Shown here one piece after another: positions 13,870 to 56,789 of a stretch of DNA of 64,000 nucleotides. Source of the DNA: Lobosporangium transversale (lineage: Eukaryota); the NCBI RefSeq assembly GCF_002105155.1, contig NW_019028993.1, forward strand, positions 372,001-436,000, read 5' to 3'. The notes beneath the pieces were generated by a model that saw only the letters and a list, made by a program, of their open reading frames with translations, was not told the DNA's origin and did not search any database. The stretch's first letter is position 1. Every line of letters begins with the position of its first letter. A program made the position numbers and the translations under genes.

Positions 13870-15045
13870 TTAGAGACGGGAAGCGGCCACGGTTTCCATA
13901 ACAACTCTATAGCGAGGACGACCTTCTTTTGAGTGCTTGAGCGCAGCATTAGCGTCACTCATTGGCATCTTCTCGATCCAAGGACGAACGTTCTTCTCGG
14001 CTGCAAACTGTAACATGTCCTCGTTGTCCTTCCTACTACCAATCAATGATCCAACCACAGCGACATCACGGTAGATCAAGGGCAAACCAGGTACACATAT
14101 GGGCTTGTTAGGCACGCACAAGACCACAAACTTGCCATGGTTGGCCACGAGGGATAAGTATTGACCCCAGTCAGCGTCGTCAGGCAAACCAGTACAAAGG
14201 ACAATATCTAATAACTCAGCAGCTGCTTTTATCTCCTCAGGTTTACTGAAATTCAGGAATCTTGTAGCACCGAGTTGTTTGGCCTCCTTACGTTTGCTCT
14301 CACCGGTGGAGATCGCAACGACTTCATCGCAGTTCATAGCTCTAGCCCACTGGATACCCAAGTGACCGAGACCACCGATGCCGATGATACCGACTTTCTT
14401 ACCAGGGCCAGCACCAAGATGCTTAAGGGGAGTATAAGTGGTCAGACCAGCACACATTAGCGGACCAGCTAATTTTGAATGGTAGATTAAAATATTGTTA
14501 ATTTTTTTCTTTAATATTATTTTTACTATTTCTATTTTCGCGTGTGTTTTACCTTCAGCAGGCAAGATCTGTGGGGGGATCTTGTAGACAAACTTGCTGT
14601 CCAGACGGATACGATCAGCAAAGCCACCGTAGCTGATGCCATTGCGTCCGTTCTTGTACGTGTCATCGAAGATAAAGGTTTTCTTCTTACAGAACTGGTC
14701 TAGATCTTTTTTACATTCATTGCATTGACCGCATGCTTCGATCAATCCACCAGCGCCAACAATATCACCGACCTGATGACGACTGCTTTTGCCAGCAACG
14801 ATCACTTTCCCAACGAGTTCGTGTCCGGCGATGCAAGGTCCATGCTTCAATGGGCCCCAATCGCCATTGATGGTGTGGGTATCTGAGGCGCAGATACCAC
14901 AGTGAGTGATCTCAATTTCGACATCCTCCGGACGCAATGGCTGAGGATGGTATGAGTAAGGCTTGACAGTGAGGTCTCCAGTAGAAGCCCATCCGGTGAA
15001 AGTGACAGATGTGTCCTCGGAGACCTTGGTATTAGAAACAGTCAT
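13870..15045 (-). CDS. NADPH-dependent zinc alcohol dehydrogenase, CAD/Adh6-like (one 84-nt intron 14552-14469)
   Basis: CGICASD, GHE, structural-Zn CGQCNEC..C, PLMCAGLT, GIGGLGH, RYRVV. Confidence 0.95.
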   Translation of the reverse strand: MTVSNTKVSEDTSVTFTGWASTGDLTVKPYSYHPQPLRPEDVEIEITHCGICASDTHTINGDWGPLKHGPCIAGHELVGKVIVAGKSSRHQVGDIVGAGGLIEACGQCNECKKDLDQFCKKKTFIFDDTYKNGRNGISYGGFADRIRLDSKFVYKIPPQILPAEGKTHAKIEIVKIILKKKINNILIYHSKLAGPLMCAGLTTYTPLKHLGAGPGKKVGIIGIGGLGHLGIQWARAMNCDEVVAISTGESKRKEAKQLGATRFLNFSKPEEIKAAAELLDIVLCTGLPDDADWGQYLSLVANHGKFVVLCVPNKPICVPGLPLIYRDVAVVGSLIGSRKDNEDMLQFAAEKNVRPWIEKMPMSDANAALKHSKEGRPRYRVVMETVAASRL

Positions 15046-16855
15046 GGTTATTCTTTCTTATGTATTAGGAAGTGTGGATTTAGTTTGGAAATGGATATAG
15101 AATTGGATTTGGACTTGGGATAATGTCTTTTTTCTTTGTTATGGTGTGTTATGTTGAGGTTGAAAAAAAATAAAGATTGGTGGTCGACGTTCAGCTTTTA
15201 TACCTCTTTCTACCTGTCTGCCTGTCTATACTTTTACTTCAATGCTCATTTGAGATACTGTCCGTCTTGGTTTGTCAGTAACTCATAGTTAAAACTATTT
15301 GTATCGAGGAGCCAATTAGTGCGCTTGTTTAGCTACATCGTAGATGCTGTCAATTCACCTGCCGTTTTTAATAAGCCTTTGCTGGTTCTAGAGTGCGCTA
15401 CTAAACTTTACTTTTGACCTTTTTGTCATTAAAGAATAATGGTTACGTATCCCCGATCTTAGAATTCTATTTCGTTTGCCCGATCTTTGCATGATTGATT
15501 AGAAAAAAAAAAAAAAAAACCTTATCTGGAGCAACGAGGGGCGTCTTGACTGCGGAACAGGAGCTATAAAGTTGTAGAGCGTAATGGTATACATACAACG
15601 TGAATACCATTTTTAGGTTCGTGCTATAATTTTCCCATTTTTCCATTTGGAAAGCCGGACCAATCCAAATAGAGAATTCGTTGATGTTTTGGCAAAACTA
15701 ATATCCGCTGCATGCATGCATGCATGTTAGTTACAAATAACGAAACCGAGCTCAGAAAACGATTTTTCTGAAAATAAAAAAAAAGGAGGCCTGCGTTGCT
15801 TGCCTATTGGATTAATTGGATTAATTGTAAGATAGATTACTTTGGGTCAATCAAGAAGAACAAAAGCGTCAACACTATGAAGGACTTTCAAATATGCAAC
15901 CTTCAGTTTGCAAAAAATGGTATCCCTTCCCTTTTTTTGTCAGTTATGCACTTTATCAAAAAAAATGAGGCTCTTCACGAGCCTGCGCAGCTTATGTGCG
16001 GTGCACTCACGCTCATTGACAAATTCTGTCATATAGGTCACAAGGGAATGATTTTCCTTCTAAGTGATTTGTGCCGCTTAGAAATTTCTCACTTTGGTCC
16101 CAGTCTGTCATTGAGCGTTAGTGCGTTGTACATAAGCCACACAGGCTGGTGACGAGTTTATAAAATCCACTTTGACAAAAAGTTCGACCAGACCGTATGA
16201 CTGTGCAATAATGTCTAGCAAGGTTTTTAAAATTATATTTGAGCTTCCCCAACTCATACATTGCTGTCTTGACATAACGAGGATTGCAACCGTTATGATC
16301 AGCATGGAGATGTATGTCGAGTATATGCATATGATATCAGAATGAGTTCAATCTTTGCGTAGGATATAATACTTTGCTTGTTTACCAGAAGCAAAACGCC
16401 GCTCTTAGAGAGTCACAGAGGAGTCGAAGAGTGGTATAAATTTTTAGTTTAAGGGTCCATTTCTACGTTACGCAAAGCTTAAGCTGCAAGTCAACATGCA
16501 GAAACAGGGCAGACAAAAAGCCAGAAGCAAAAACAGCAGAGGAAAAAGGAGTGCGACTTTCTTGTTAAAAATGACTTTCCCTCCGTCTGTGGACCTCTTT
16601 CTATACGGTAATTTATAATTTATATTTTAGATCAGATTATTTTTCTTTTACAGCAGCTCTCACAACGTACAGCATTGATATTTCTAAGAGACAAAGAGTA
16701 GTTCATAATAGTATATGTTTACAATGTTTATTATTCCTAGCCTCATCTCTTTAGTATCGAGAGTAAGAGGTTCGTGATTTCAACCACTAGCCGACTCGAA
16801 TTATCCCTGAGGCTAACTTCATTCTATGAGTGGTATCCTTGCTTGTTCACTCCAT

Positions 16856-17282
16856 TTAAGGCTTGATTGGGGGAATTCTAATATGAATATCGTCGGTGAA
16901 AGTGGGGTCCTTTGGCCCATCCGCCTCGGTGATGCTTTGAGGAGGAATTTTGATATGAGAGTTGGGAATTGGAGGGATCTTGATATGGATGCTATCAGCA
17001 GACTCAGCGACTGGAGGGATTTTAATATGGGTGCCGTCGGTGGAGATGGAGTTCTTTGCTCCATCCGACTCGGCGATTGGCATCTTGATTGGGCCAGCTA
17101 TAGAGTTAAATAGGACAAGATGGTAATGAGCTGAATGTTTAGCATACCCGAACAGTGTACAAATACAACACACAAACACAAGCATGCACATCCACATGGA
17201 CAGGTGTAAAAACCTTACCTTCGGTGGACATAACCAAGGCGGCAACGGTCATGGAAAGGGCGGCAGTGATTGAGAGCTTCAT
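16856..17282 (-). CDS. Secreted repeat-peptide precursor A (101 aa; exons 17282-17219 and 17097-16856)
   Basis: Spliced translation: MKLSITAALSMTVAALVMSTEAGPIKMPIAESDGAKNSISTDGTHIKIPPVAESADSIHIKIPPIPNSHIKIPPQSITEADGPKDPTFTDDIHIRIPPIKP*. GTAAG...TATAG intron, hydrophobic signal peptide, upstream TATA, paralog at 20898. Confidence 0.85.
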
Positions 17283-17368
17283 GATGTGAAATGGATAGTG
17301 GAGATTTAAGGAGCTATTTACAGTGTTGTAAGGTGCTTGAAGAAGAGAGAAGGAAAAAGAGCAAAAGG

Positions 17369-18582
17369 GTCTGGTTTTATATGAAAAAATACATGGATGG
17401 TGAAGCACTTGGTACACCGAGCTTGACACACCGAGCAACCAATAGGTATCTTCAAGTCAAAGATACTTTCCTGTTTGGCTATCTATACTCTATCTCAGTA
17501 ACATCAGGGATCTGAAACACTCACTAGATGTAGAACAGATCGCTTGTGCCGCTATGACAATGTAGTGGGACTATTAAGATATGTAGTCAAAACGCTTGTT
17601 TCACACATTTATGGCTATTCACGTTTTATGGCGCGTGACATGCTCCTCTAACAGTCGTCAATTGAAGTCAAACAGCATTAGTCGAAGTGATACGCTTATG
17701 AAACACCCAATCACGCAAGTCTTGTCGTCATACAAAATTAATGAGGCAGATAAGGTAAACGCAGGATGGGCAGCATATAAATCCTGTAGCTAGAAAGACA
17801 TAGCACGCATGTAGGATAGTTGGGGTAGTTGAGCAGCAGGATGCAGTCATGTATTACAAAACCAAGCAGACGAAGCTGCTTACCTTTGCTGCCACTATCA
17901 TGATCGATGCATTTGTCTTTGGGATGCTCAATCAGGGTCTAACTGTTCACACTATAGAGGCACAAGGCCAATGCGACAGTATTCCAGTCTTGGGGTTTTT
18001 TTTTACCCCTTGGTAGCCAATTGGCCTGTCTTTACTTGCACATATTCTACAGAAGAATAATAATAGCAGGTATGCTACCCCTATCTACTGATTACTAGAT
18101 TTGATTGTTTAAAATGTTTCTAATGATGAACCTAGTTGAATCAGAATTACTCGAGAAACTTCCTGTTTGACTTAAAAATCACAAAGCTTATCTAGGCAAT
18201 CCGTCCAATAGCTAAGATATAACACTTATCTAGGGCTGAAAACTAGAACACGAGCTTAAAGCTCGACTCCATCCTTCTCAATCTGGGGAAATGGAGTTGC
18301 CCTTGTTTCGGGTTAAATAATCTAAACATTTTCACGGTAAATGCGGCTTACAGCGTCCATGATGAAATGAAGCCAAAGTACGCTAGGAAAATCATACCTC
18401 AAGTAGTGAGGCGGTTCAACACTGAATCGAAAAGCCTGCAATCCCTTGGGGCGATTGAAAGCATATCGTTAAAAACCTTTAGAGTCTCCTAGTTGCTTTG
18501 GTTGAATAGCTATCGAGTTTCTATACTGAGGATGTTTAGCGCAGATGTGCCTAGACAAATATTCAGCAACAGGTTACAAAGG
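17369..18582. repeat. Left arm of 1214-bp inverted repeat (promoter of precursor A)
   Basis: Reverse complement of 19599-20812. The coordinate sum is 38181 at both ends and at the identical spurious ORFs 17596-17793 / 20388-20585, so there is no net indel. No mismatch in the segments I compared. Confidence 0.97.
17375..17381 (-). promoter_or_regulatory. TATA box of precursor A
   Basis: TATAAAA on the minus strand ~92 nt upstream of ATG 17282, followed by a pyrimidine-rich leader. Confidence 0.65.
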
Positions 18583-18628
18583 CAAGCTCTACATGGAGAA
18601 AGCGTTGTAATAACCTGCTTACCGGGGG

Positions 18629-18661
<33 letters not shown>

Positions 18662-19598
18662 ACCAGGATGATAGCCACCACAAGTGCAGCTTTGCCATAT
18701 ATAGCCAAGACTATGTTGTTATATATATCAGAACACCTGGATTTACCAGAGGTTCAAGGACAAGCAGCTGTTGCTGAGGTGGGGAGGATGACAACAGAGA
18801 AAGAGAAAGTGACCAAGCGGATAGCCTAGCTAGCCTTGCATTTTAGTCTGAATTGAAAACTTATTCATTGCTTGATAATAAATTAAAGACAATATCTATA
18901 CGTTAATTCTAGTTTTCGTAGATGTGTATTAGAATGAAGTCGATAATCTGACTACTGATAAAATGAGAAAATTATTATACGATGGGCATGTAAAGCGCAT
19001 AAGTCGAGCCTGAATCTTCCAGAAAATGTACATGAGAGGTATTGTAAACGATGCTAGGTGAATGCTGCACAGAAGGAGGAGCTCTTATTCAGTGTACGCG
19101 TGAACATATCGAGATTAAAAGTTTGGTTTTTTGTATTTGCTGAAGGGAAAGTGATACGCTTCGGGTGGAGCTTTTTTCACGAAAGGGCCTACCTGTAAGA
19201 TCAAAGCTGGCTTCACAAGTTCTCTGACTAGAGATAGCATGTCGTGCTCCAATCACTAGTGCTTCATGAACTGGGCTTGCTGCAAGCGTATCCTTTAGCC
19301 TCAGCTAGAACACCATCCAGTGGGAACATGAGTCTAGACTGCAGCTGGGAGTGTTTGAACCTCTTAGGTAGGGGTTCTTGGATTTGCAAGAGTGGACCTG
19401 GCCCTACCGTGTATTCAAACATAAAACATCATTTCTTGAAGATCTGTTGACATCTCGATATATGGTGACCTCATTTACTCATAGTAAACACCAAATAAGC
19501 ATAAGGGAACCATAATCTCTATTGATACTTATAATTATTCAGAGATTCGAAAATATTTAATAGGATTTCTTCATCTTCAAGCAGAAGCTAGATAGGAA

Positions 19599-20812
19599 CC
19601 TTTGTAACCTGTTGCTGAATATTTGTCTAGGCACATCTGCGCTAAACATCCTCAGTATAGAAACTCGATAGCTATTCAACCAAAGCAACTAGGAGACTCT
19701 AAAGGTTTTTAACGATATGCTTTCAATCGCCCCAAGGGATTGCAGGCTTTTCGATTCAGTGTTGAACCGCCTCACTACTTGAGGTATGATTTTCCTAGCG
19801 TACTTTGGCTTCATTTCATCATGGACGCTGTAAGCCGCATTTACCGTGAAAATGTTTAGATTATTTAACCCGAAACAAGGGCAACTCCATTTCCCCAGAT
19901 TGAGAAGGATGGAGTCGAGCTTTAAGCTCGTGTTCTAGTTTTCAGCCCTAGATAAGTGTTATATCTTAGCTATTGGACGGATTGCCTAGATAAGCTTTGT
20001 GATTTTTAAGTCAAACAGGAAGTTTCTCGAGTAATTCTGATTCAACTAGGTTCATCATTAGAAACATTTTAAACAATCAAATCTAGTAATCAGTAGATAG
20101 GGGTAGCATACCTGCTATTATTATTCTTCTGTAGAATATGTGCAAGTAAAGACAGGCCAATTGGCTACCAAGGGGTAAAAAAAAACCCCAAGACTGGAAT
20201 ACTGTCGCATTGGCCTTGTGCCTCTATAGTGTGAACAGTTAGACCCTGATTGAGCATCCCAAAGACAAATGCATCGATCATGATAGTGGCAGCAAAGGTA
20301 AGCAGCTTCGTCTGCTTGGTTTTGTAATACATGACTGCATCCTGCTGCTCAACTACCCCAACTATCCTACATGCGTGCTATGTCTTTCTAGCTACAGGAT
20401 TTATATGCTGCCCATCCTGCGTTTACCTTATCTGCCTCATTAATTTTGTATGACGACAAGACTTGCGTGATTGGGTGTTTCATAAGCGTATCACTTCGAC
20501 TAATGCTGTTTGACTTCAATTGACGACTGTTAGAGGAGCATGTCACGCGCCATAAAACGTGAATAGCCATAAATGTGTGAAACAAGCGTTTTGACTACAT
20601 ATCTTAATAGTCCCACTACATTGTCATAGCGGCACAAGCGATCTGTTCTACATCTAGTGAGTGTTTCAGATCCCTGATGTTACTGAGATAGAGTATAGAT
20701 AGCCAAACAGGAAAGTATCTTTGACTTGAAGATACCTATTGGTTGCTCGGTGTGTCAAGCTCGGTGTACCAAGTGCTTCACCATCCATGTATTTTTTCAT
20801 ATAAAACCAGAC
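19599..20812. repeat. Right arm of 1214-bp inverted repeat (promoter of precursor B)
   Basis: Reverse complement of 17369-18582. The arms are separated by a unique 1016-bp spacer (18583-19598). Confidence 0.97.
20800..20806 (+). promoter_or_regulatory. TATA box of precursor B
   Basis: TATAAAA ~91 nt upstream of ATG 20898. Confidence 0.65.
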
Positions 20813-20897
20813 TCTTTTACTCCTCTTCCTTTTCTTCTTTCAAACACATCACAACACTGTAAAAAGCTCCTCAGGTCTTCTCTATCCATTTCACATC

Positions 20898-21595
20898 ATG
20901 AAGCTCTCAATCACCGCCGCCCTTTCCGTGGCTGCTGCCGCCTTGGTTATGTCTACCGAAGGTAAGATCTTTACACCTGTCCATACTCCTGTGCATGTTT
21001 GCGTCTGCGTGTTTTGTATTTATACACTGTTCAAGTATGCTAATAGTCAGCTCATTACCATCTTGTCCTATTTAACTCTATAGCTGGCCCAATCAAGAAG
21101 ATCCCACTCGCCACAGTCAAGGAGGCATCTGGACCTCATCTCACTGACTCGGCCAAAGAGGAATCTAGATGGAAGCTCATTGAACTCAAGGGACCTCATC
21201 TCGTTGATGACTCTGTCGAGGAGGATTCTAAATGGGGCACAATTATATATGGATCGAGTCACGGGCCATTCAAGGGACCTCATCTCGTTGATGACTCGGC
21301 CAAGGAGGCTAGACACCCCATCTGGTACAAGGGACCTCATCTCATTGATGACTCAGTCAAGGAGGCTTCTGGGCCTCATCTCGTTGACTCGGTCAAAGAG
21401 GAATCTAGACGGTTCCCCATTGAATTCAAGGGACCTCGTTTCGATGATGACTCGGCCAAGGAGGCTAGATATGATTATGGAGTCAAGCCACTCAAGGGAC
21501 CTCGTTTCGATGATGACTCAGTCAAGGAGGATAGGCATATCAAGGTCCCAATCGGTCCAATCAAGAAGGCATCTGGACCTCATCTCGCTGACTAG
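20898..21595 (+). CDS. Secreted multi-core repeat-peptide precursor B (191 aa; exons 20898-20961 and 21084-21595)
   Basis: Spliced translation: MKLSITAALSVAAAALVMSTEAGPIKKIPLATVKEASGPHLTDSAKEESRWKLIELKGPHLVDDSVEEDSKWGTIIYGSSHGPFKGPHLVDDSAKEARHPIWYKGPHLIDDSVKEASGPHLVDSVKEESRRFPIEFKGPRFDDDSAKEARYDYGVKPLKGPRFDDDSVKEDRHIKVPIGPIKKASGPHLAD*. GTAAG...TATAG intron in the same phase and position as in paralog A. Confidence 0.88.
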
Positions 21596-22110
21596 ATCAT
21601 GAAGGCGTCACGCCCCATCGGGAAATAGACAGCTCATTCAAGGCTTCTAGGATCCAGAGAAGGGGCAATTCATGGGGATCGACTTATGGAATGAAATCAG
21701 TCTTAGGAATGATGTTAACTGTGTACAGGAATAACGACTCTCAATACTAAACATGTTAAGACCAGAAATAAATGTAAATATTATAAATTACTTTTTGCCT
21801 CTTAAAAATATCAATGCTGTATATTGTGAGAGCTGTGAGGAAAAACAATATGACCTAAATTACAACAAGGAGCTTCGTAATATGATATATTCGTGGGTTA
21901 CTGGATCACTGGATCTCAAAGGGAAAAATAGAAAAGAAAAGAAACATAATGAAAAGTAATGAAAAAGAATAGAGAATTAGAAAAAAAAAAAAAAAAAAAA
22001 AAAAAGTAAAAAAGGATAATAGAAAAAAGTAAGGATAAGAATATTAAAAAATGGAAAAAAGTAACCCTGTCTCTTTACCTATCTCTTTACCAATTCTTCC
22101 ATATTTTTTA

Positions 22111-22183
22111 TCTGTTCTTACCTGTTCTTACCTGTTCTTACCTGTTCTTACCTGTTCTTACCTGTTCTTACCTGCTCTTACCT
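22111..22183. repeat. 10-bp minisatellite (CCTGTTCTTA)~7
   Basis: Direct reading of tandem units. Confidence 0.95.
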
Positions 22184-22632
22184 ATTTTATATGCTTACCT
22201 TATTTATTTATTTCATTATTGTTATTATCACTTTCTATTTACTAAAGTCGTAAGGATCCGTGGTTGTGTGCTAAGCAACATCACGGCCATGGCACGAGAC
22301 ATTACAAAAAAATCACAAGTCTTGAATAAATACGTTTTAAGCCCGTCCAAAAATGACCAGAGCTCGATGATGGGTTCCTTCAAACGCCATCCATGGCCTC
22401 CATGATATAACCAGGCTTCAATGATTGGCTTGTTCCACCCATTGGTACGCATGCATGATTAAATTGATTGGACACTTAAAGACGTTGAATATTTCTGTGC
22501 CATGAGTATGGCTATCAAGAGAATGAAATTATCATACGCACTCTTTTTTATTTCATTGGCAGTGCTGATATGTAATATAGTTGATCGGTTTCTTCTAAAT
22601 TGTTCAAAAGTCCAATCCATCTATGCGTTCCA

Positions 22633-22730
22633 AAAAATAAAAATAAAAATAAAAATAAAAATAAAAATAAAAATAAAAATAAAAATAAAAATAAAAATAA
22701 AAATAAAAATAAAAATAAAAATAAAAATAA
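22633..22730. repeat. (AAAAAT)~16 hexamer microsatellite
   Basis: Direct reading; it generates the spurious KIKIKI / NKNKNK / FYFYFY ORFs. Confidence 0.95.
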
Positions 22731-24932
22731 GGGACTTGCGCCAGTGGCGCACAGGCCAAGATGTTGGTACTTCTTTTGGGCTTAATCATTTAGTGCACCC
22801 CTTGGACTGTAAAACGGGCAAATTTACTCATTTAGCTTTCATCAACTCATGGCTAGGCCAGATCCAGTTTTCCGTGCTTTCTACGAGCAGGAAACAACCG
22901 GCTACTGGCATCTTATCGACCATATCAGGTCATAATTATGGTGGGTAGAAGCAATGCCGGTGCTCCGACCTACTCGATTTGCATGCTTAGGAAGCTAATA
23001 AAAAAGACTAAAATAATCAACCAGCAAAACTAATCAGAAAAAAAAAAAAGAAAAAAACCAGCAAAAGCCATTTATCAAGCCTATACTCATCACGATGCAC
23101 TACATCCATCTTTAAATAACCTCGGCTCCTCTGGACATCCCCCAACTTTGACCTTGTTCTATCCAGACTAAAGACAAGCAAAACATCAGTGGCTGTCTCT
23201 ATTATTCTCTACCTCCTTTCCGGCTCCTTTTTCACTAGAGGTACGTTACGAATCTCCATATTGATCTAAAAACGGCTGACATTCGAGATTTAGAAAATCG
23301 TTTGATTGCAGGCTCGAATCTTTGTCTCCAGCAGAGAATAGCATTAGGCCATTTTGTTAGGTGGTATTCATAGATTTCGCACTAGTGTACATTGTCACCG
23401 TAACAACCGCACCAGCTCCCTAGAATCAGTTCTACTACGGTTAAAATACAACCGCAGATGCATGGTGTATTTGATCGTGATGCGATTGGTGCCGGAAATA
23501 TTGGTGGGATGTGTCTCGCACATATACCATCTCGAATGCGGTCCGGAAAGCCCAAACCCAGTATGGCAGTAGCGAGAACTGCGAGGGGTTCCCTCATTAG
23601 CGCTGTTAAGCGCTCGAGGCAACAATGATTGGGAGACTGATTCTCCCTTCACAGAATTGTAAGTGAAACAATCATAGTTTTTGTATGCTTTGTATGCTCG
23701 AGCAATAGCCATCAATGTTTGAACTAACTTTGACTTGTTGTGTGTGCACTTCTGTTCCTTGCAGGGATCCTACCCAAGATGAGAGGTTTCAAACGTCAGT
23801 GGAAAAAGATGAAGCTATTACACTATCAACTGAGTGGTCATGACATTATATCGCTGTTGAACAATGGCATAGGCAATCTGTCTCCCTTTCAAGAAACACA
23901 GGATGAACCAACAGAAAAGGGTCGATTCGACACCCTCCGAGCATGTGCCTATCTATCGCTTTATGATATTTGCCAAGTACAGTGGTCATCATAAGTTGTT
24001 CAATAAATCTGAAATCCGGACATTCTCATTTCTCTTCTCTCTTTTGATCTTGTATGTCGACAATGTAGCTGCGGTAATGGATTCGGTCATCACCAGTGTC
24101 TCTTCTGCTGTAGTGTCAATAAAGCCTTTTCCTTGATAGACAACCAAGATGGATGCCAATTGTTGGCTCCTCATTGAAAGATATATGGAGTAAATTAACT
24201 CTGCTTTATTGGACAATTGTGCTAGTTGATTCGGTTATCCGTTTGGGAAAATGGATATGGTTCCAGAGACTCGTATAACATTGAGGACAGCTATGTTGTT
24301 ATAAATGTCAATCAAATCCAGACCGTTCGTTAAACGTAGGCTCTTAAGGACATGAACTAAGGATGAACTTGGCAGGATAGCTAATGATAAAATGAGAGGA
24401 GCCTTGCGCGGTGACTCTGTAAGAGTGTAGGGATAAAAAAAAATGTAAAGTTTTCTACAAAGACAACAGGCCTAAATGAAATTGCAGACTGCATTGGATC
24501 ATCTCCAGGTAGTGTCTCCTTCAGTCTTAGGCGGAGGGAGAGAGGGCTCTAAAGAGCCAGGCTAGGCAGTGCTATACAAGGTGTAGAAATGCCGTGTTTT
24601 GTATAAAGACTTTATCAACTAACACGGGCGCTTATACATCTGCTTTTTTGAAGCGTATTAAAAGTTAAAACATTGTTTTTTCCAGCGCAACCCTCCAGAC
24701 GCTCGTGATCCATTGCGCACGTGATCGGCGGAGCCAAAAAAAACACGATGTGTGCTCACACCTTCTCACGTTCATCCTCATGCATCTTTTTTTTTCTTTC
24801 TCTTTTATACACGACACTCTATTCCATTTGAATAATCAGCACACGACAGCCATCCTCTAACAGCCTTTATTGTTTCATTGTTTTTCTCCTTCTCCTTCTC
24901 AAGCCTCAAGTTCATATATTCCTTGAAGAACC

Positions 24933-26760
24933 ATGAAGAAAAAAGTAAATGCCTTTTTCTATCCCTCTTCTTCCTCCAAGAGAATAAAAATACATTATTG
25001 AAAAAAAGAAAAAGAAAAAGAAAAAAGCTTACACGAGGATGCATGTCTTTACTAAAAAAAAAAAAAAAAAAAAAAAAAAATGATTTTTAGGTGCTATTGA
25101 TGGGAAAGAGTGGGTCAGGCAAGACCTCCATGCGCTCCATCATTTTCTCAAATTATATTGCAAGAGACACTCGTCGTCTTGGTGCAACCAGTAAGGAAAC
25201 ATGCATACACGTAAAAAAAAAAAAAAAAAAAAAAGGGCATTCTAATGCATGTGCATATTTGTTCGTCTACATTTTTTTTTTGTTTTTTTTTTATGATTGC
25301 TACAGCTGTAACTAAGAAACTAAACATAATCAATTAACTGTTGTTTTTTTGATAGTTGATGTCGAGAATTCACACGTCCGCTTTCTTGGAAACTTGGTAT
25401 TGAACTTGTGGGATTGTGGAGGGTGAGTCAATTACAAATTGGAAAGAGAGCTTATTTTATGGCAAAGCAAAAAAAAGGTCAAAGATTTTTTTTTTTTCTT
25501 CAGCTTGCTTTTTTTCATCAAGTGTCAATCAATTGCATAAAAAAACTAATTGGCGTTCTTCTTATTATTATTAATATTTTTAAAAAAAAAAAAATTGTAC
25601 GACACAGTCAGGAGGCATTCATGGAAAATTACTTTGCATCGCAACGTGATCATATCTTTAAAAACGTCGAAGTGTTAATTTATGTCTTCGATGTGGAAAG
25701 CAGGGATGTTGAAAAGGATATGCATTATTATCAATCATGCTTGGAAGCCATCATGACCAATTCCAAAGATGCAAAGATCTTTTGTTTAATTCATAAGATG
25801 GATCTTGTACAGGAGGATCAACGTGATAAGATCTATAATGAACGTGTCCTCGAATTACAGACACGATCTTTGCCTCTTCAAGTGATACCCTTCAGGACTT
25901 CAATTTGGGATGAGACATTGTACAAGGTATATATCAGCTGCCAGCCTTAACGAGTATTACCAGGCACTATCATTTCATCATCAATAAGCTTTTTCATAAT
26001 CAATGGTTCTAATTTTTTTTTTTTTTTTTTTATTTAAAATTTTTTTTATCGTGCTCATAGGCATGGTCATCCATTGTGTATTCACTGATCCCAAATGTTC
26101 AACTTTTGGAGAGTCATTTGGACAACTTTTGTAGGATTTGTGAAGCGGATGAAATTGTCCTGTTTGAACGAATGACATTCTTGGTGATTGCACATTCCAC
26201 ACGTATTGATTATGGTGATGTGCATCGGTTTGAAAAAATCAGCAACATTATCAAGCAATTCAAGCTGTCGTGCTCGTATGTGTGCCCTCCTTTTTTTTTT
26301 TGTCTTCTTTATTTTTTGCTCGCCTTTTACAAAAAAAAAAAAAAGAAAAAGAAAAAGCTTTTGTGTGCAAATGGTCATTTAATCCAACATTGGCATGCTG
26401 TTTTAACACACCTTTTATTAATGTAATGGATGAATGATATTTTACAGTAGGACACAGGGTAGCTTCCAAAGCATGGAAGTACGACATTCCAACTTTGCAG
26501 GATTTATCGATTACTTGACAGGCAATACATATGTTATGGTTATCATGTCGGACCCAACTATCCGTAAGGCCCTTACTCCTTTAACACCTCTGAAATGGAA
26601 GTCTGATCTGATCACTCATATCCTAACCTTTTTTTTTTTTTTTTTTTTTTCCCCTTTTGGTTCATGGTTACCCTGAATAGAATCTGCTGCAACTCTTATG
26701 AACATCAGTGTTGCCAGAAAGCATTTTGAAAAATTGGAAGGAGCACAGTTCTCAAAGTAG
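24933..26760 (+). CDS. GTR1: Rag GTPase Gtr1/RagA (multi-exon, 12-nt first coding exon)
   Basis: [96 protein letters not shown]; stop TAG 26758-26760. Confidence 0.97.
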
Positions 26761-53514: not shown

Positions 53515-53846
53515 GGTTTACCCGTTGTCACATGAGATCCTCAACAATGACAGTGATGTGTGAAGGTCGCACAGGGCTCCCTGGCGGATTAATACATATG
53601 GTGGCGCCTCTTCATTTATTCGCCCGCATCGGTGTATCAAATCTATGTACGATACGAAAAACCGCAATAAATTTTGTCCTGGGCCATCCTTCCTTCTTTT
53701 CATTTACTCATTTTTACTTCATTTCATTCCATTGGAAGTTCAATTCGTTCTCTCGTTTCTGTACTCTTATTTTAATATCTTTCAGAAACGTGGCAACTGT
53801 GCATCCCATTAAAATCTTGACTGATATTCAATAACTACCTGACTTT

Positions 53847-56789
53847 ATGAGTCGCTTCTCCAGTATCGGCACGACCACTACAATGTACAACAGTGGGTCT
53901 TCATTCACGCACAGTTCTACACCCCACCCGAAAAGCGATCTGATCATGGCTCCAAAACGTTCACTTCCTCCACCACCCCCTATTCCTTCATCAACAGCTA
54001 CACCACCAAAACGACCAGTACCATCTCTCCCTACAACAACTGATGATGAACGATTACCCCAGGCTGCAGCTACGTCTCCAAAGCGATCGCTGCCTCCACC
54101 ACCAACGCCACCCACCAGTAGAGAGCACAGTAGCATAGCACCGCCGCCCCGGTCATTACCACGCCCGCTCTCTGTTGTCTCTCTTACCAAGCCCAATCGA
54201 CCTATACCCTCTATCCCAGCACCATCTCATACCCACATCGAAAGCGAAGATAATGAGAAAACTCTCCATGCTCCTACAACTCCTGAGACCCCAACCGGGA
54301 TTGCGCCAGTACCATCGCCGCGTCGTCTCAGTATTATTGAAGGACTGGCCAAACCACCAATCATTCGTCCGTCATCCATGGTTTCTGTCAATTCAATCCG
54401 AACATCTGAAAAACATACCTCTTCTATTTATGAAGAAGACGAAGAGGAGCATGGACCAGTGAAGGTGCAAGAGCAAGAGCAAGGGCCAAGGGAGGATAAC
54501 GCACCAATGTCTCCGATACATTCAACGACTATGCCTGCTGTACCTTGGTTAGCTGAACTGGAAAACAGGCGAGCTGGATTGAATTCTACTAAGAAACCGC
54601 CAGCCGAGCATTCAAGTCATATCTCTTCAGATTCTGCTCAAACACCTCTCGAATCTTCGAAACGAGTCATCTCCACTTCAAAATCACCTCAAACCTTAGT
54701 AACGAATGGATATCAGAAAAATCTGGTCCCTGTGCCCTCAACACACGTTCATTCACTAAAACACACAACACCCACATCTCCAAAGCCAGTACCAGTATCA
54801 ATAACCACGTCCTCCGTCACACAGACAACCGGTGTAGTTCTACCTAAACGCGCCGTGCCCCGATCCCCAGTTACTCCAAGGTCGTCAGAGTCAACGCAGG
54901 GAGACAAACTATCACCTATTCCTAACCGGTCGGGATCAAACATTTTGAAGAAGATTGAGGAGCTACATCTAAATGAAGAATCACCTGCACCTCCACACCC
55001 ACCCTTGCCACCTTCCAAACCACGAAGATTACCCTGCATTACTCCAGTTCGTGATGATCAGACAGCGGAGCGTGTGCAACAAACGCAGTTCAAGATCGAG
55101 CCGCCTCTTCCTATCCCAGCACCTATACCACCATCTCTTCCACAAAGGCGCCCAACTATATCACAAAAACCAACTCCTCCTCCCCCTCCTCCTCCACGCC
55201 CTACGCTGCCGCAACGTCCTGAAACACTGCAACACCCCGAACCTCTTCAACGTCCAGAACTGCCTCGGCGACCAGAGTTACCTCAGCGTCCCCCTCTACC
55301 AAAGCGCCCTGGACAGCAAATGCAGCAGCAGCAGACTACGACACATAGCCATCATTCATCCTCACAGTCTTTCTCGAGCGTACAAACCTCAACAACCACA
55401 GTTAACGGGTTTTCCAGTCATTTTTCACAAAAGGCTTCAGTATCATGCACGTCATTGATTGAGCTTCAGTCAGGCGAAGATGCTGTCAGTGCACTCAATC
55501 GAACTTCACCAATGTTTACACCAGAATTCAATGGTGAGAGACTAGATCTAAGCCTAGCAGATTTTTCAGCGATGGACGACCATGCCAGGTCATGTCCACG
55601 GTCCGAAGAGGAAAGCATTGCTAGACTCTCTTACTATTTGACATCGCCCTTCCAAGGTGACCAAGTGGCACAACTGAGGACGATCTTTACATGGCTCGCT
55701 ACTAATATTGAGTATAACATGAAGGGACTATTATCCGGTAACTTTGGCGATAACTCTGCCGAGACCGTCCTCCGAACCAAGACTGGAGTCTGTGCAGGGT
55801 TTTCAAATCTTTTCATGGCTCTTGCGGCTCCGGCACAGTTGGGTGTGACACAGGTGACGGGTGTTGCTCGTGGATATGGGGTCGAGGTTGGAGGTGACTC
55901 GTTGGGTGCAGGACATGCGTGGAATGCGGTAACGATTTCAGGAGAATGCCTATTAATTGATTCGACATGGGGTGCAGGAGCAGATGATCCGACAACGGGA
56001 ATGAGCAAGATGTTTAAACCACAGTACTTCCTGATACGCCCAGAGTGGTTAATCTATAGTCATTGGCCAAATCAACCACAAGATCAATTTCTGAACCCAC
56101 CTATTCATGTGGATGTGTATCGCGCGCTGCCTTTCCGAATGATAGATTCATGGACGCTGGGTATTGTCCCAATCGGAGTGAATAGCACGCACACGGTGTA
56201 TACAGATAATGATTACTTTGAGCTTGAAATCTTGCTTGAGAAACAAGCATGGAATGGAGCAACTGCGTTCATGGCATCTCACCTGGACTGGAAGACTACA
56301 GGCGAAAGAATCAAGGCAGCTCGTCACTGGACTCGTGAAGATGAGAAGGGTATCATCATGACAATCAAATGTATTTGCCCCACACCAGGATTCGGGACAC
56401 TGATGGTCTATGGAATGCCTGCGACTAGCACTGAAGGTCACTCAATCAACGTTCTGCAGTACAAGATCGTGAATAATGGTAGTGGGGCAAACGCAATGCC
56501 CATGATGGAGACGTATGATGTACTGGGGTTTTCGTTTTCAATCATGGAGCCTATTACAGCACGCGTTCAAAGTGGTGTTACACAGACCATCCGCGTCAAG
56601 ATCTTTAATGTACAGAAGGGAGAAACGGCGCCTAGGCCCGTATTGGTGGGCGGGTTTATGCCTGATCCGATGAAGGAGATAGGACAAGGATTGTATGAGT
56701 TACAGAAGACACTGAGGCCTGGCGAATACAAGATTGGGTTCATGAAGGGCATCTCCATGGGTCTCCTTGGTGTCTTCCATGCAGTATAG
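53847..56789 (+). CDS. Transglutaminase-like (KY peptidase / Cyk3-type domain) protein with long Pro-rich N-terminus, single exon
   Basis: LRTIFTWLATNIEY, GVCAGFSNLF (Cys), HAWNAV (His), LIDSTWGAG (Asp), YFLIRPEWLIYSHWP. Confidence 0.9.
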   Translation: MSRFSSIGTTTTMYNSGSSFTHSSTPHPKSDLIMAPKRSLPPPPPIPSSTATPPKRPVPSLPTTTDDERLPQAAATSPKRSLPPPPTPPTSREHSSIAPPPRSLPRPLSVVSLTKPNRPIPSIPAPSHTHIESEDNEKTLHAPTTPETPTGIAPVPSPRRLSIIEGLAKPPIIRPSSMVSVNSIRTSEKHTSSIYEEDEEEHGPVKVQEQEQGPREDNAPMSPIHSTTMPAVPWLAELENRRAGLNSTKKPPAEHSSHISSDSAQTPLESSKRVISTSKSPQTLVTNGYQKNLVPVPSTHVHSLKHTTPTSPKPVPVSITTSSVTQTTGVVLPKRAVPRSPVTPRSSESTQGDKLSPIPNRSGSNILKKIEELHLNEESPAPPHPPLPPSKPRRLPCITPVRDDQTAERVQQTQFKIEPPLPIPAPIPPSLPQRRPTISQKPTPPPPPPPRPTLPQRPETLQHPEPLQRPELPRRPELPQRPPLPKRPGQQMQQQQTTTHSHHSSSQSFSSVQTSTTTVNGFSSHFSQKASVSCTSLIELQSGEDAVSALNRTSPMFTPEFNGERLDLSLADFSAMDDHARSCPRSEEESIARLSYYLTSPFQGDQVAQLRTIFTWLATNIEYNMKGLLSGNFGDNSAETVLRTKTGVCAGFSNLFMALAAPAQLGVTQVTGVARGYGVEVGGDSLGAGHAWNAVTISGECLLIDSTWGAGADDPTTGMSKMFKPQYFLIRPEWLIYSHWPNQPQDQFLNPPIHVDVYRALPFRMIDSWTLGIVPIGVNSTHTVYTDNDYFELEILLEKQAWNGATAFMASHLDWKTTGERIKAARHWTREDEKGIIMTIKCICPTPGFGTLMVYGMPATSTEGHSINVLQYKIVNNGSGANAMPMMETYDVLGFSFSIMEPITARVQSGVTQTIRVKIFNVQKGETAPRPVLVGGFMPDPMKEIGQGLYELQKTLRPGEYKIGFMKGISMGLLGVFHAV

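Follow-up and report, generated by a model that had tools for sequence, protein, structure and literature searches.

The question raised by this locus is what kind of precursor, if any, is encoded by a small gene, here called gene B, within a 64,000-nt stretch of the Lobosporangium transversale genome (contig NW_019028993.1; the window below). In the product, a predicted signal peptide is followed by short variable segments (cores) set between repeated acidic linkers, and the original prediction regarded it as a RiPP-like precursor. Gene B is composed of the following elements.

20800..20806, plus strand: TATA-like box of B, recognised by its sequence
20898..20961, plus strand: exon 1 of B, 64 nt, encoding a predicted signal peptide (residues 1–22), with the intron interrupting its last codon; exon 1 of paralogue A matches at 58 of 64 nt
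20962..21083, plus strand: phase-1 intron of B, GT..AG, 122 nt, as in the annotated model P0003; aligned with the intron of A, 104 of 123 columns agree
21084..21595, plus strand: exon 2 of B, the cassette array, in which a duplicated block is present twice at 240-nt spacing and followed by the beginning of another copy

Translation from the ATG at 20898 across the joined exons (20898–20961 and 21084–21595) confirmed the predicted spliced product of 191 residues, which coincides letter for letter with P0003, a hypothetical protein of L. transversale in NCBI and UniRef (one cluster member, two contigs). The predicted 20961/21084 junction is supported by the annotation and by paralogy. An alternative in-frame acceptor at 21050, directly 3' of a branch-site-like motif at 21040, would give a form of 202 residues, with 11 residues added after the leader and the array unaltered. 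The final 36 nt of the introns of A and B are identical and the rest is about 80% alike (21021–21083; 17098–17160); the identical ends are flanked by two in-frame acceptors and might be translated in an alternative splice form. The leader has Lys at position 2, a hydropathy peak of 2.37 over 11 residues, and a small residue at the predicted −1 position, as judged by inspection rather than by SignalP, and from this leader we infer that B is probably secreted. The product contains neither Cys nor an N-glycosylation motif, and its Atlas structure model (pLDDT 0.42, pTM 0.21) shows no confident fold. The region 15000–25100 gave no match in Rfam. All six cores named in the original prediction were located in exon 2.

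21170..21187, plus strand: core 1, WKLIEL, homologous to core 4
21233..21271, plus strand: core 2, WGTIIYGSSHGPF, homologous to core 5
21314..21328, plus strand: core 3, HPIWY, with the decayed seventh cassette as its homolog
21410..21427, plus strand: core 4, RFPIEF, homologous to core 1
21470..21493, plus strand: core 5, YDYGVKPL, homologous to core 2
21536..21562, plus strand: core 6, HIKVPIGPI, resembling the HIKIPP cores of A

The six cores are all different, hydrophobic, and 5–13 residues long. Repeated 4-mers in B number 45; 2000 shuffled versions had 0.33 on average and never more than 4. Within the mature protein, the 47 core residues include 10 of the 12 aromatic residues and only 3 of the 31 Asp/Glu residues, the other 28 being found in the linkers. 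The net charge of the core-bearing units is 0 in four of six, −3 in one, and +1 in one. The array layout originally proposed is retained, except that it omitted an N-terminal unit (residues 23–37), which is homologous to the start of A. Each core is preceded by R/K and followed by K (6/6, in agreement with the original prediction), and the two empty cassettes carry neither residue. The lack of a KR site also holds, but the protein does possess one RR (residues 130–131, where core 4 starts with R) and two KK pairs (residues 26–27 and 182–183), and RR and KK are also scored as sites in screens for KEPs. One of the six cores opens at a dibasic pair and one closes at such a pair.

All six cores end with L, F, Y, or I ahead of K, so that conservation extends into the core, and GPHL/GPRF is followed by different residues in different copies (T, V, I, D, or A), as might happen at a boundary. 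These features are those expected if the products keep a tail, namely a variable N-terminus joined to hydrophobic-K-GP(H/R)(L/F), and are freed from the acidic spacers in the manner of neuropeptides, a basic-site protease cutting at the linker-end R/K only. We consider such products quite improbable: their release requires an unusual cut or trimming on the N-side of acidic residues, no Gly follows the motif for amidation, the motif is missing from A except for one weak GP stretch, and the empty cassettes would give only a tiny tail peptide.

The paralogue and the duplicated upstream DNA are as follows.

16856..17282, minus strand: paralogue A, 101 residues, annotated as P0004; exon 1 17282–17219, intron 17218–17098, exon 2 17097–16856
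17369..18582, minus strand: upstream arm of A, identical to the arm of B
19599..20812, plus strand: upstream (promoter) arm of B, an exact inverted copy of the A arm over 1,214 nt

A and B are arranged head to head, and the 1,214-nt identity of the arms stops just past the TATA-like box. Beyond the arms, 51 of 63 nt are identical in the 5' region, next to the 58/64 of exon 1 and the 104/123 of the intron, and the bodies are scarcely alignable; the intron, the TATA box, and the 3' region are conserved between the two genes. In sequencing run X4, the arm assembles into a contig of its own with a depth roughly double that of single-copy pieces, in keeping with a real duplication. The identity of the arms suggests recent gene conversion or recombination, by which the 1,016-nt spacer could be inverted. 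The shared identical arms also suggest that A and B may be held under common regulation. The inner arm junction is covered in X4 and lacks coverage in X1 and X3; as a long poly-A next to it was skipped in the analysis, this difference between runs was set aside. In DNA runs X1, X3, and X4, contigs over A (16640–17295) are roughly twice as deep as those over B, and two other letters occur there in X3 and X4, which is a hint of, rather than a count for, a second near-identical copy of A elsewhere. A diverged third copy of part of the arm (17416–17861 / 20320–20765) was found as a 554-nt contig in X1 and X4, and is perhaps the promoter of another family member.

A possesses a leader of the B type and four HIK/RIPP cores between variable spacers, three of which are acidic and one short and uncharged. 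Its pattern is opposite to that of B, the cores being near-constant and the acidic spacers variable, and none of the four cores has a basic residue ahead of it. The expectation that homologs would display conserved linkers and variable cores is partly contradicted by A, the sole full-length homolog, which is reversed in pattern and devoid of the basic residue.

The array of B arose by recent block duplication. Its DNA repeats at a spacing of 240 nt; each of the two full blocks contains three cassettes, and a further block is begun. Core pairs 1/4 and 2/5 are homologous at the DNA level, their scores being reached in 0 and 1 of 500 shuffles, respectively. These two pairs stand out among the 15 tested; pair 2/6 comes third (7/500), and the remaining positional pair, 3/6, was not significant (49/500). 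The cores called hypervariable in the original prediction are indeed more variable than the linkers, but two of the pairs are homologous in DNA. Cores 1 and 4 are separated by 6 differences in 18 nt, every one of them non-synonymous. In the linkers of these blocks, 18 of 132 nt differ (Fisher p=0.044), and in the adjacent linkers taken alone 9 of 81 nt do (p=0.028); both are post hoc values for a single pair, the only alignable one. Pairs 2/5 and 3/6 differ in length. Pairwise comparison of five long linkers gave a pN of 0.113 and a pS of 0.104, with no sign of purifying selection. Because the linkers resemble each other through recent duplication or homogenisation, their likeness is no proof of constraint at the protein level; nor can this similarity, which lies in the DNA with roughly equal dN and dS, alone establish recognition by an enzyme. 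The persistent difference among the cores is the point that needs explanation.

The end of the array gives a further view of its turnover.

21593..21637, plus strand: decayed seventh cassette, starting at the stop codon, with 29 of 45 nt identical to cassette 3

After cassette 3 itself, this segment is the best ungapped match to cassette 3 in the window. The stop codon of B occupies the position of a Ser codon in the live linkers, and the linker of the dead cassette differs from four live linkers at 7–10 of 18 nt, while live linkers differ from one another at 0–5. The terminal linker stub was considered as a minimal or designed follower, and this was rejected, the stub being a nonsense change inside the array. 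Other letters in exon 2 of B were absent from X1, X3, and X4, all of which are flagged as possible sources of the window and hence are not independent, and no allelic hypervariability was seen among them. X5 and X6 were left out of this comparison, their changes being almost only C>T and G>A (bisulfite-like).

The nonsense change that shortens the array, together with gene-poor surroundings and dispersed repeats, could also be taken to mean that B originated by a recent duplication in its family and is now largely silent or decaying. We assign this the slightest probability of the explanations considered, given that the 191-codon frame is intact while the other frames are stop-rich (22 stops) or share the codon structure of the array, that the intron, the TATA box, and the 3' region are conserved with A, and that the dead cassette is more decayed than the live ones.

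The A/B pair lies in about 10 kb without any other recognised gene, between an alcohol dehydrogenase (ADH) gene and a Gtr1/RagA gene. The window contains 97 stop-to-stop ORFs of at least 100 residues, and in the 74 of them compared with Pfam no DUF3328, tyrosinase, peptidase, or methyltransferase was detected; the other 23 ORFs mostly overlap longer frames. The families detected were pyruvate kinase, ribosomal S11, AMP-binding enzyme, Fe-ADH, GATA factor, and others, with a JmjC protein about 12 kb away. In a true RiPP system, an unlinked secretory protease or cyclase would recognise the linker and macrocyclise or modify each core, as for cyanobactins or orbitides. Enzymes of eukaryotic RiPPs need not be clustered, and the variable cores, orbitide-like in size and composition, the near-constant linkers, and the presence of Tyr in three of the six cores are in keeping with such a system. 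However, no tailoring family occurs in the 74 scanned ORFs, the invariant Pro flanks are absent from the cores, the terminal stub is a nonsense change, the linkers display no protein-level constraint, and our literature search found no paper tying RiPPs to Mortierellaceae. This origin of the products is therefore very unlikely. The designation of the precursor as RiPP-like is not supported, considering also the opposite pattern of A, and the likeness of the linkers, seen at the DNA level, is not sufficient to mark them as recognition sequences.

Relatives of the two genes were sought in several collections. A search with exon 2 of B confirmed 1 match among 181 candidates (proteins of 93–298 residues), that with exon 2 of A 1 of 1 (44–140 residues), and that with the B leader 1 of 12 (105–335 residues); each found only genes of the window, within limits of length and annotation in which longer or unannotated paralogs could not appear. 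A profile of A and B against 1.84 billion representatives hit only A and B at E up to 0.001, and Pfam, NCBIfam, and PDB gave no match. Four pattern matches in viral contigs and 62 in prokaryotic contigs all failed confirmation, and metagenome contigs contained no match for the leader pattern or the degenerate linker pattern. Feature hits in the Atlas were all below 0.9, the nearest neighbours being small fungal proteins that include alpha-factor precursors (0.79, a lead only), and its structure hits, which rest on a low-confidence model, were not counted as support. The literature covered, which excludes subscription journals and bioRxiv supplements, holds no description of B or of a RiPP class in Mortierellaceae. 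The original statement that the family is unrecognised agrees with these results, no known family and no homolog outside the species having appeared in the searches.

Sequencing run X7 provided insight into the wider family. It behaves as RNA: an 84-nt ADH intron retained in DNA run X3 is skipped, and the depth over the non-coding arms is zero. Three X7 contigs match the leader region with other letters at 4/41, 8/74, and 12/93 positions, and the two of them with loose ends listed continue unlike A or B. For one of these leader paralogs, DNA runs X3 and X4 have the same exon end, followed by an intron donor that shares 11 of 12 nt, and the phase, with the donor of B, and X7 is spliced there, as aligned by eye. 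The leader paralogs and the spliced contig lead us to conclude that one leader exon is common to several genes with different bodies, some of which are transcribed and spliced. One contig among the leader-exon paralogs in X7 (17228–17303; 20861–20953) has a depth of 1532. Variant copies of the core-plus-spacer unit of A were found in X7, X4, and X1, and a joint in X1 returns on itself in the fashion of a tandem array; these variants (16950–17038) are indicative of a further gene that is transcribed and contains the unit in tandem. X7 contains no contig over exon 2 of B or its junction, and no RNA source is listed for B, which is uninformative on its expression either way.

Among known systems, KEPs (PMC6339444, PMC7329392, PMC9769878) share with B a signal peptide, short internal repeats, the lack of a fold, and several small linear peptides predicted as products, and some of them contain more than one type of repeat. 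B differs in that it has no KR and has dibasic pairs at three places only, not between most repeats, whereas KEPs are defined by dibasic sites between repeats. It also differs in that the acidic spacer is the repeated part and the cores are different. In a survey of 1461 genomes, Table S1 records 0 KEPs for L. transversale (PMC7329392), as anticipated by the original suggestion that screens for Kex2-processed repeats could miss B. Neither motif searched occurs in three supplement files available for the same survey, and the name L. transversale is absent from four available supplements of PMC6339444, where 11 KEPs are listed for Mortierella elongata.

The dikaritin precursors UstA, PhomA, and GigA resemble B in having a signal peptide and cores flanked by acidic and basic motifs, UstA carrying ED and KR motifs (PMC6514808). 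Unlike these, B has no KR, no DUF3328 or tyrosinase in the scanned ORFs of the window, and no near-identical cores, and it is not from Dikarya. MSDIN (amatoxin) and orbitide precursors also combine hypervariable cores with conserved flanks (PMC6514808). The cores of B are flanked by R/K and K, unlike the invariant Pro for POPB in MSDIN precursors. Cyanobactin precursors of the PatE type likewise have hypervariable cores and conserved flanks and, like orbitide precursors, contain multiple cores, which provides an analogy to B only. B differs from MSDIN, orbitide, and cyanobactin precursors alike in that no cyclase gene was found nearby in the scanned ORFs, no sequence similarity was found, and nothing in B is indicative of cyclisation. 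The precursors of apidaecin, frog skin peptides, and cnidarian neuropeptides have a conserved leader, divergent bodies, and acidic spacers balancing basic or hydrophobic peptides. A conserved leader shared by paralogs with divergent bodies is also known for conotoxin precursors, again only by analogy to the B family (PMC6514808). B has no homology to these animal precursors, and lacks a Cys framework and a Gly for amidation.

From these comparisons, B is likely to be a member of an unreported KEP-like precursor family without Kex2 sites, so far found in one species. As to its fate, we propose, at about even chances, that B encodes a multi-peptide precursor of a lineage-specific family, predicted to be secreted and KEP-like but without dibasic sites, from which cleavage at single basic residues would release linear peptides that take part in biotic interaction. 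In this scheme, the identical upstream arms would bring about co-expression of A and B, and the signal peptide would be removed from B. A monobasic protease of the late secretory pathway would then cleave after the linker-end R/K and the core-end K. A yapsin-like protease is proposed because one site has Lys (Kex2 also cuts some mono-Arg sites); yapsins are monobasic for Lys or Arg and Kex2 is Arg-specific (PMC6624476). The C-terminal Lys would be trimmed by a Kex1-like carboxypeptidase, releasing about six different short hydrophobic linear peptides, and the acidic linkers may serve as spacers that neutralise the cores. The released peptides might mediate interactions with other organisms, a role that has been proposed for the peptides of KEPs (PMC9769878). 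In the same report, expression of KEPs in Pichia yielded some products that appear to have been cleaved behind a single Arg, and others ending in Lys.

The proposed cut sites of B are followed by W, H, R, or Y, unlike the small or acidic P1'/P2' residues that Kex2 favours (PMC2515848). A monobasic protease without selectivity would, in addition, cut inside cores 1, 4, and 6 and inside all linkers, and the selectivity of the cut in B is unexplained. Since A has no basic residue before its cores, one cleavage rule does not serve A and B, and A needs another route. We further considered that A and B together form an unrecognised Kex2-independent peptide-library system of Mortierellaceae, in which a shared leader exon and homogenised promoters would yield many peptides, possibly cyclised or modified, through a secretory protease recognising the linker; we hold this broader system to be improbable. 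If it were true, it would be the first RiPP-like class of the lineage, invisible to current mining rules.

It is also conceivable, though rather doubtful in our judgement, that A and B act uncut as disordered secreted or wall-bound repeat proteins, in coating, adhesion, or metal binding via His and Asp/Glu, the array reflecting ordinary repeat turnover. The two proteins have no canonical processing sites in common, dN is about equal to dS in the linkers, and the decayed cassette and the tandem HIKIPP-type paralog are indicative of unstable repeats. Set against this are the strict association of the R/K pairs with filled and never with empty cassettes, the sorting of aromatic and acidic residues between cores and linkers, and the faster non-synonymous change in one core pair.

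Mining of fungal peptides relies on dibasic Kex2 sites and on clustered DUF3328 genes, and the precursor-like genes of the A/B family, in a species scored with no KEPs, conform to neither rule. If peptides are indeed set free from B, the number of peptide precursors in early-diverging fungi is underestimated by these screens, and more should come to light when only a signal peptide and repeats are required. The B locus further presents a possible route by which a peptide cocktail is diversified, through block duplication, faster change of the cores, and loss of an end cassette, and the A/B locus places two different precursors under identical upstream DNA.

Several other features of the surroundings were observed. 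Short dispersed repeats flank A and B at about 16100–16160, 22300–22500, 22750–22900, and 23380–23500, with many partial contigs, and simple repeats lie at 22108–22183 and 22633–22730, the A/B region being a gene-poor island. At 53835–56789, a frame of 984 residues, unrelated to B, contains a long Pro-rich region and a C-terminal transglutaminase-like/KY-like part.
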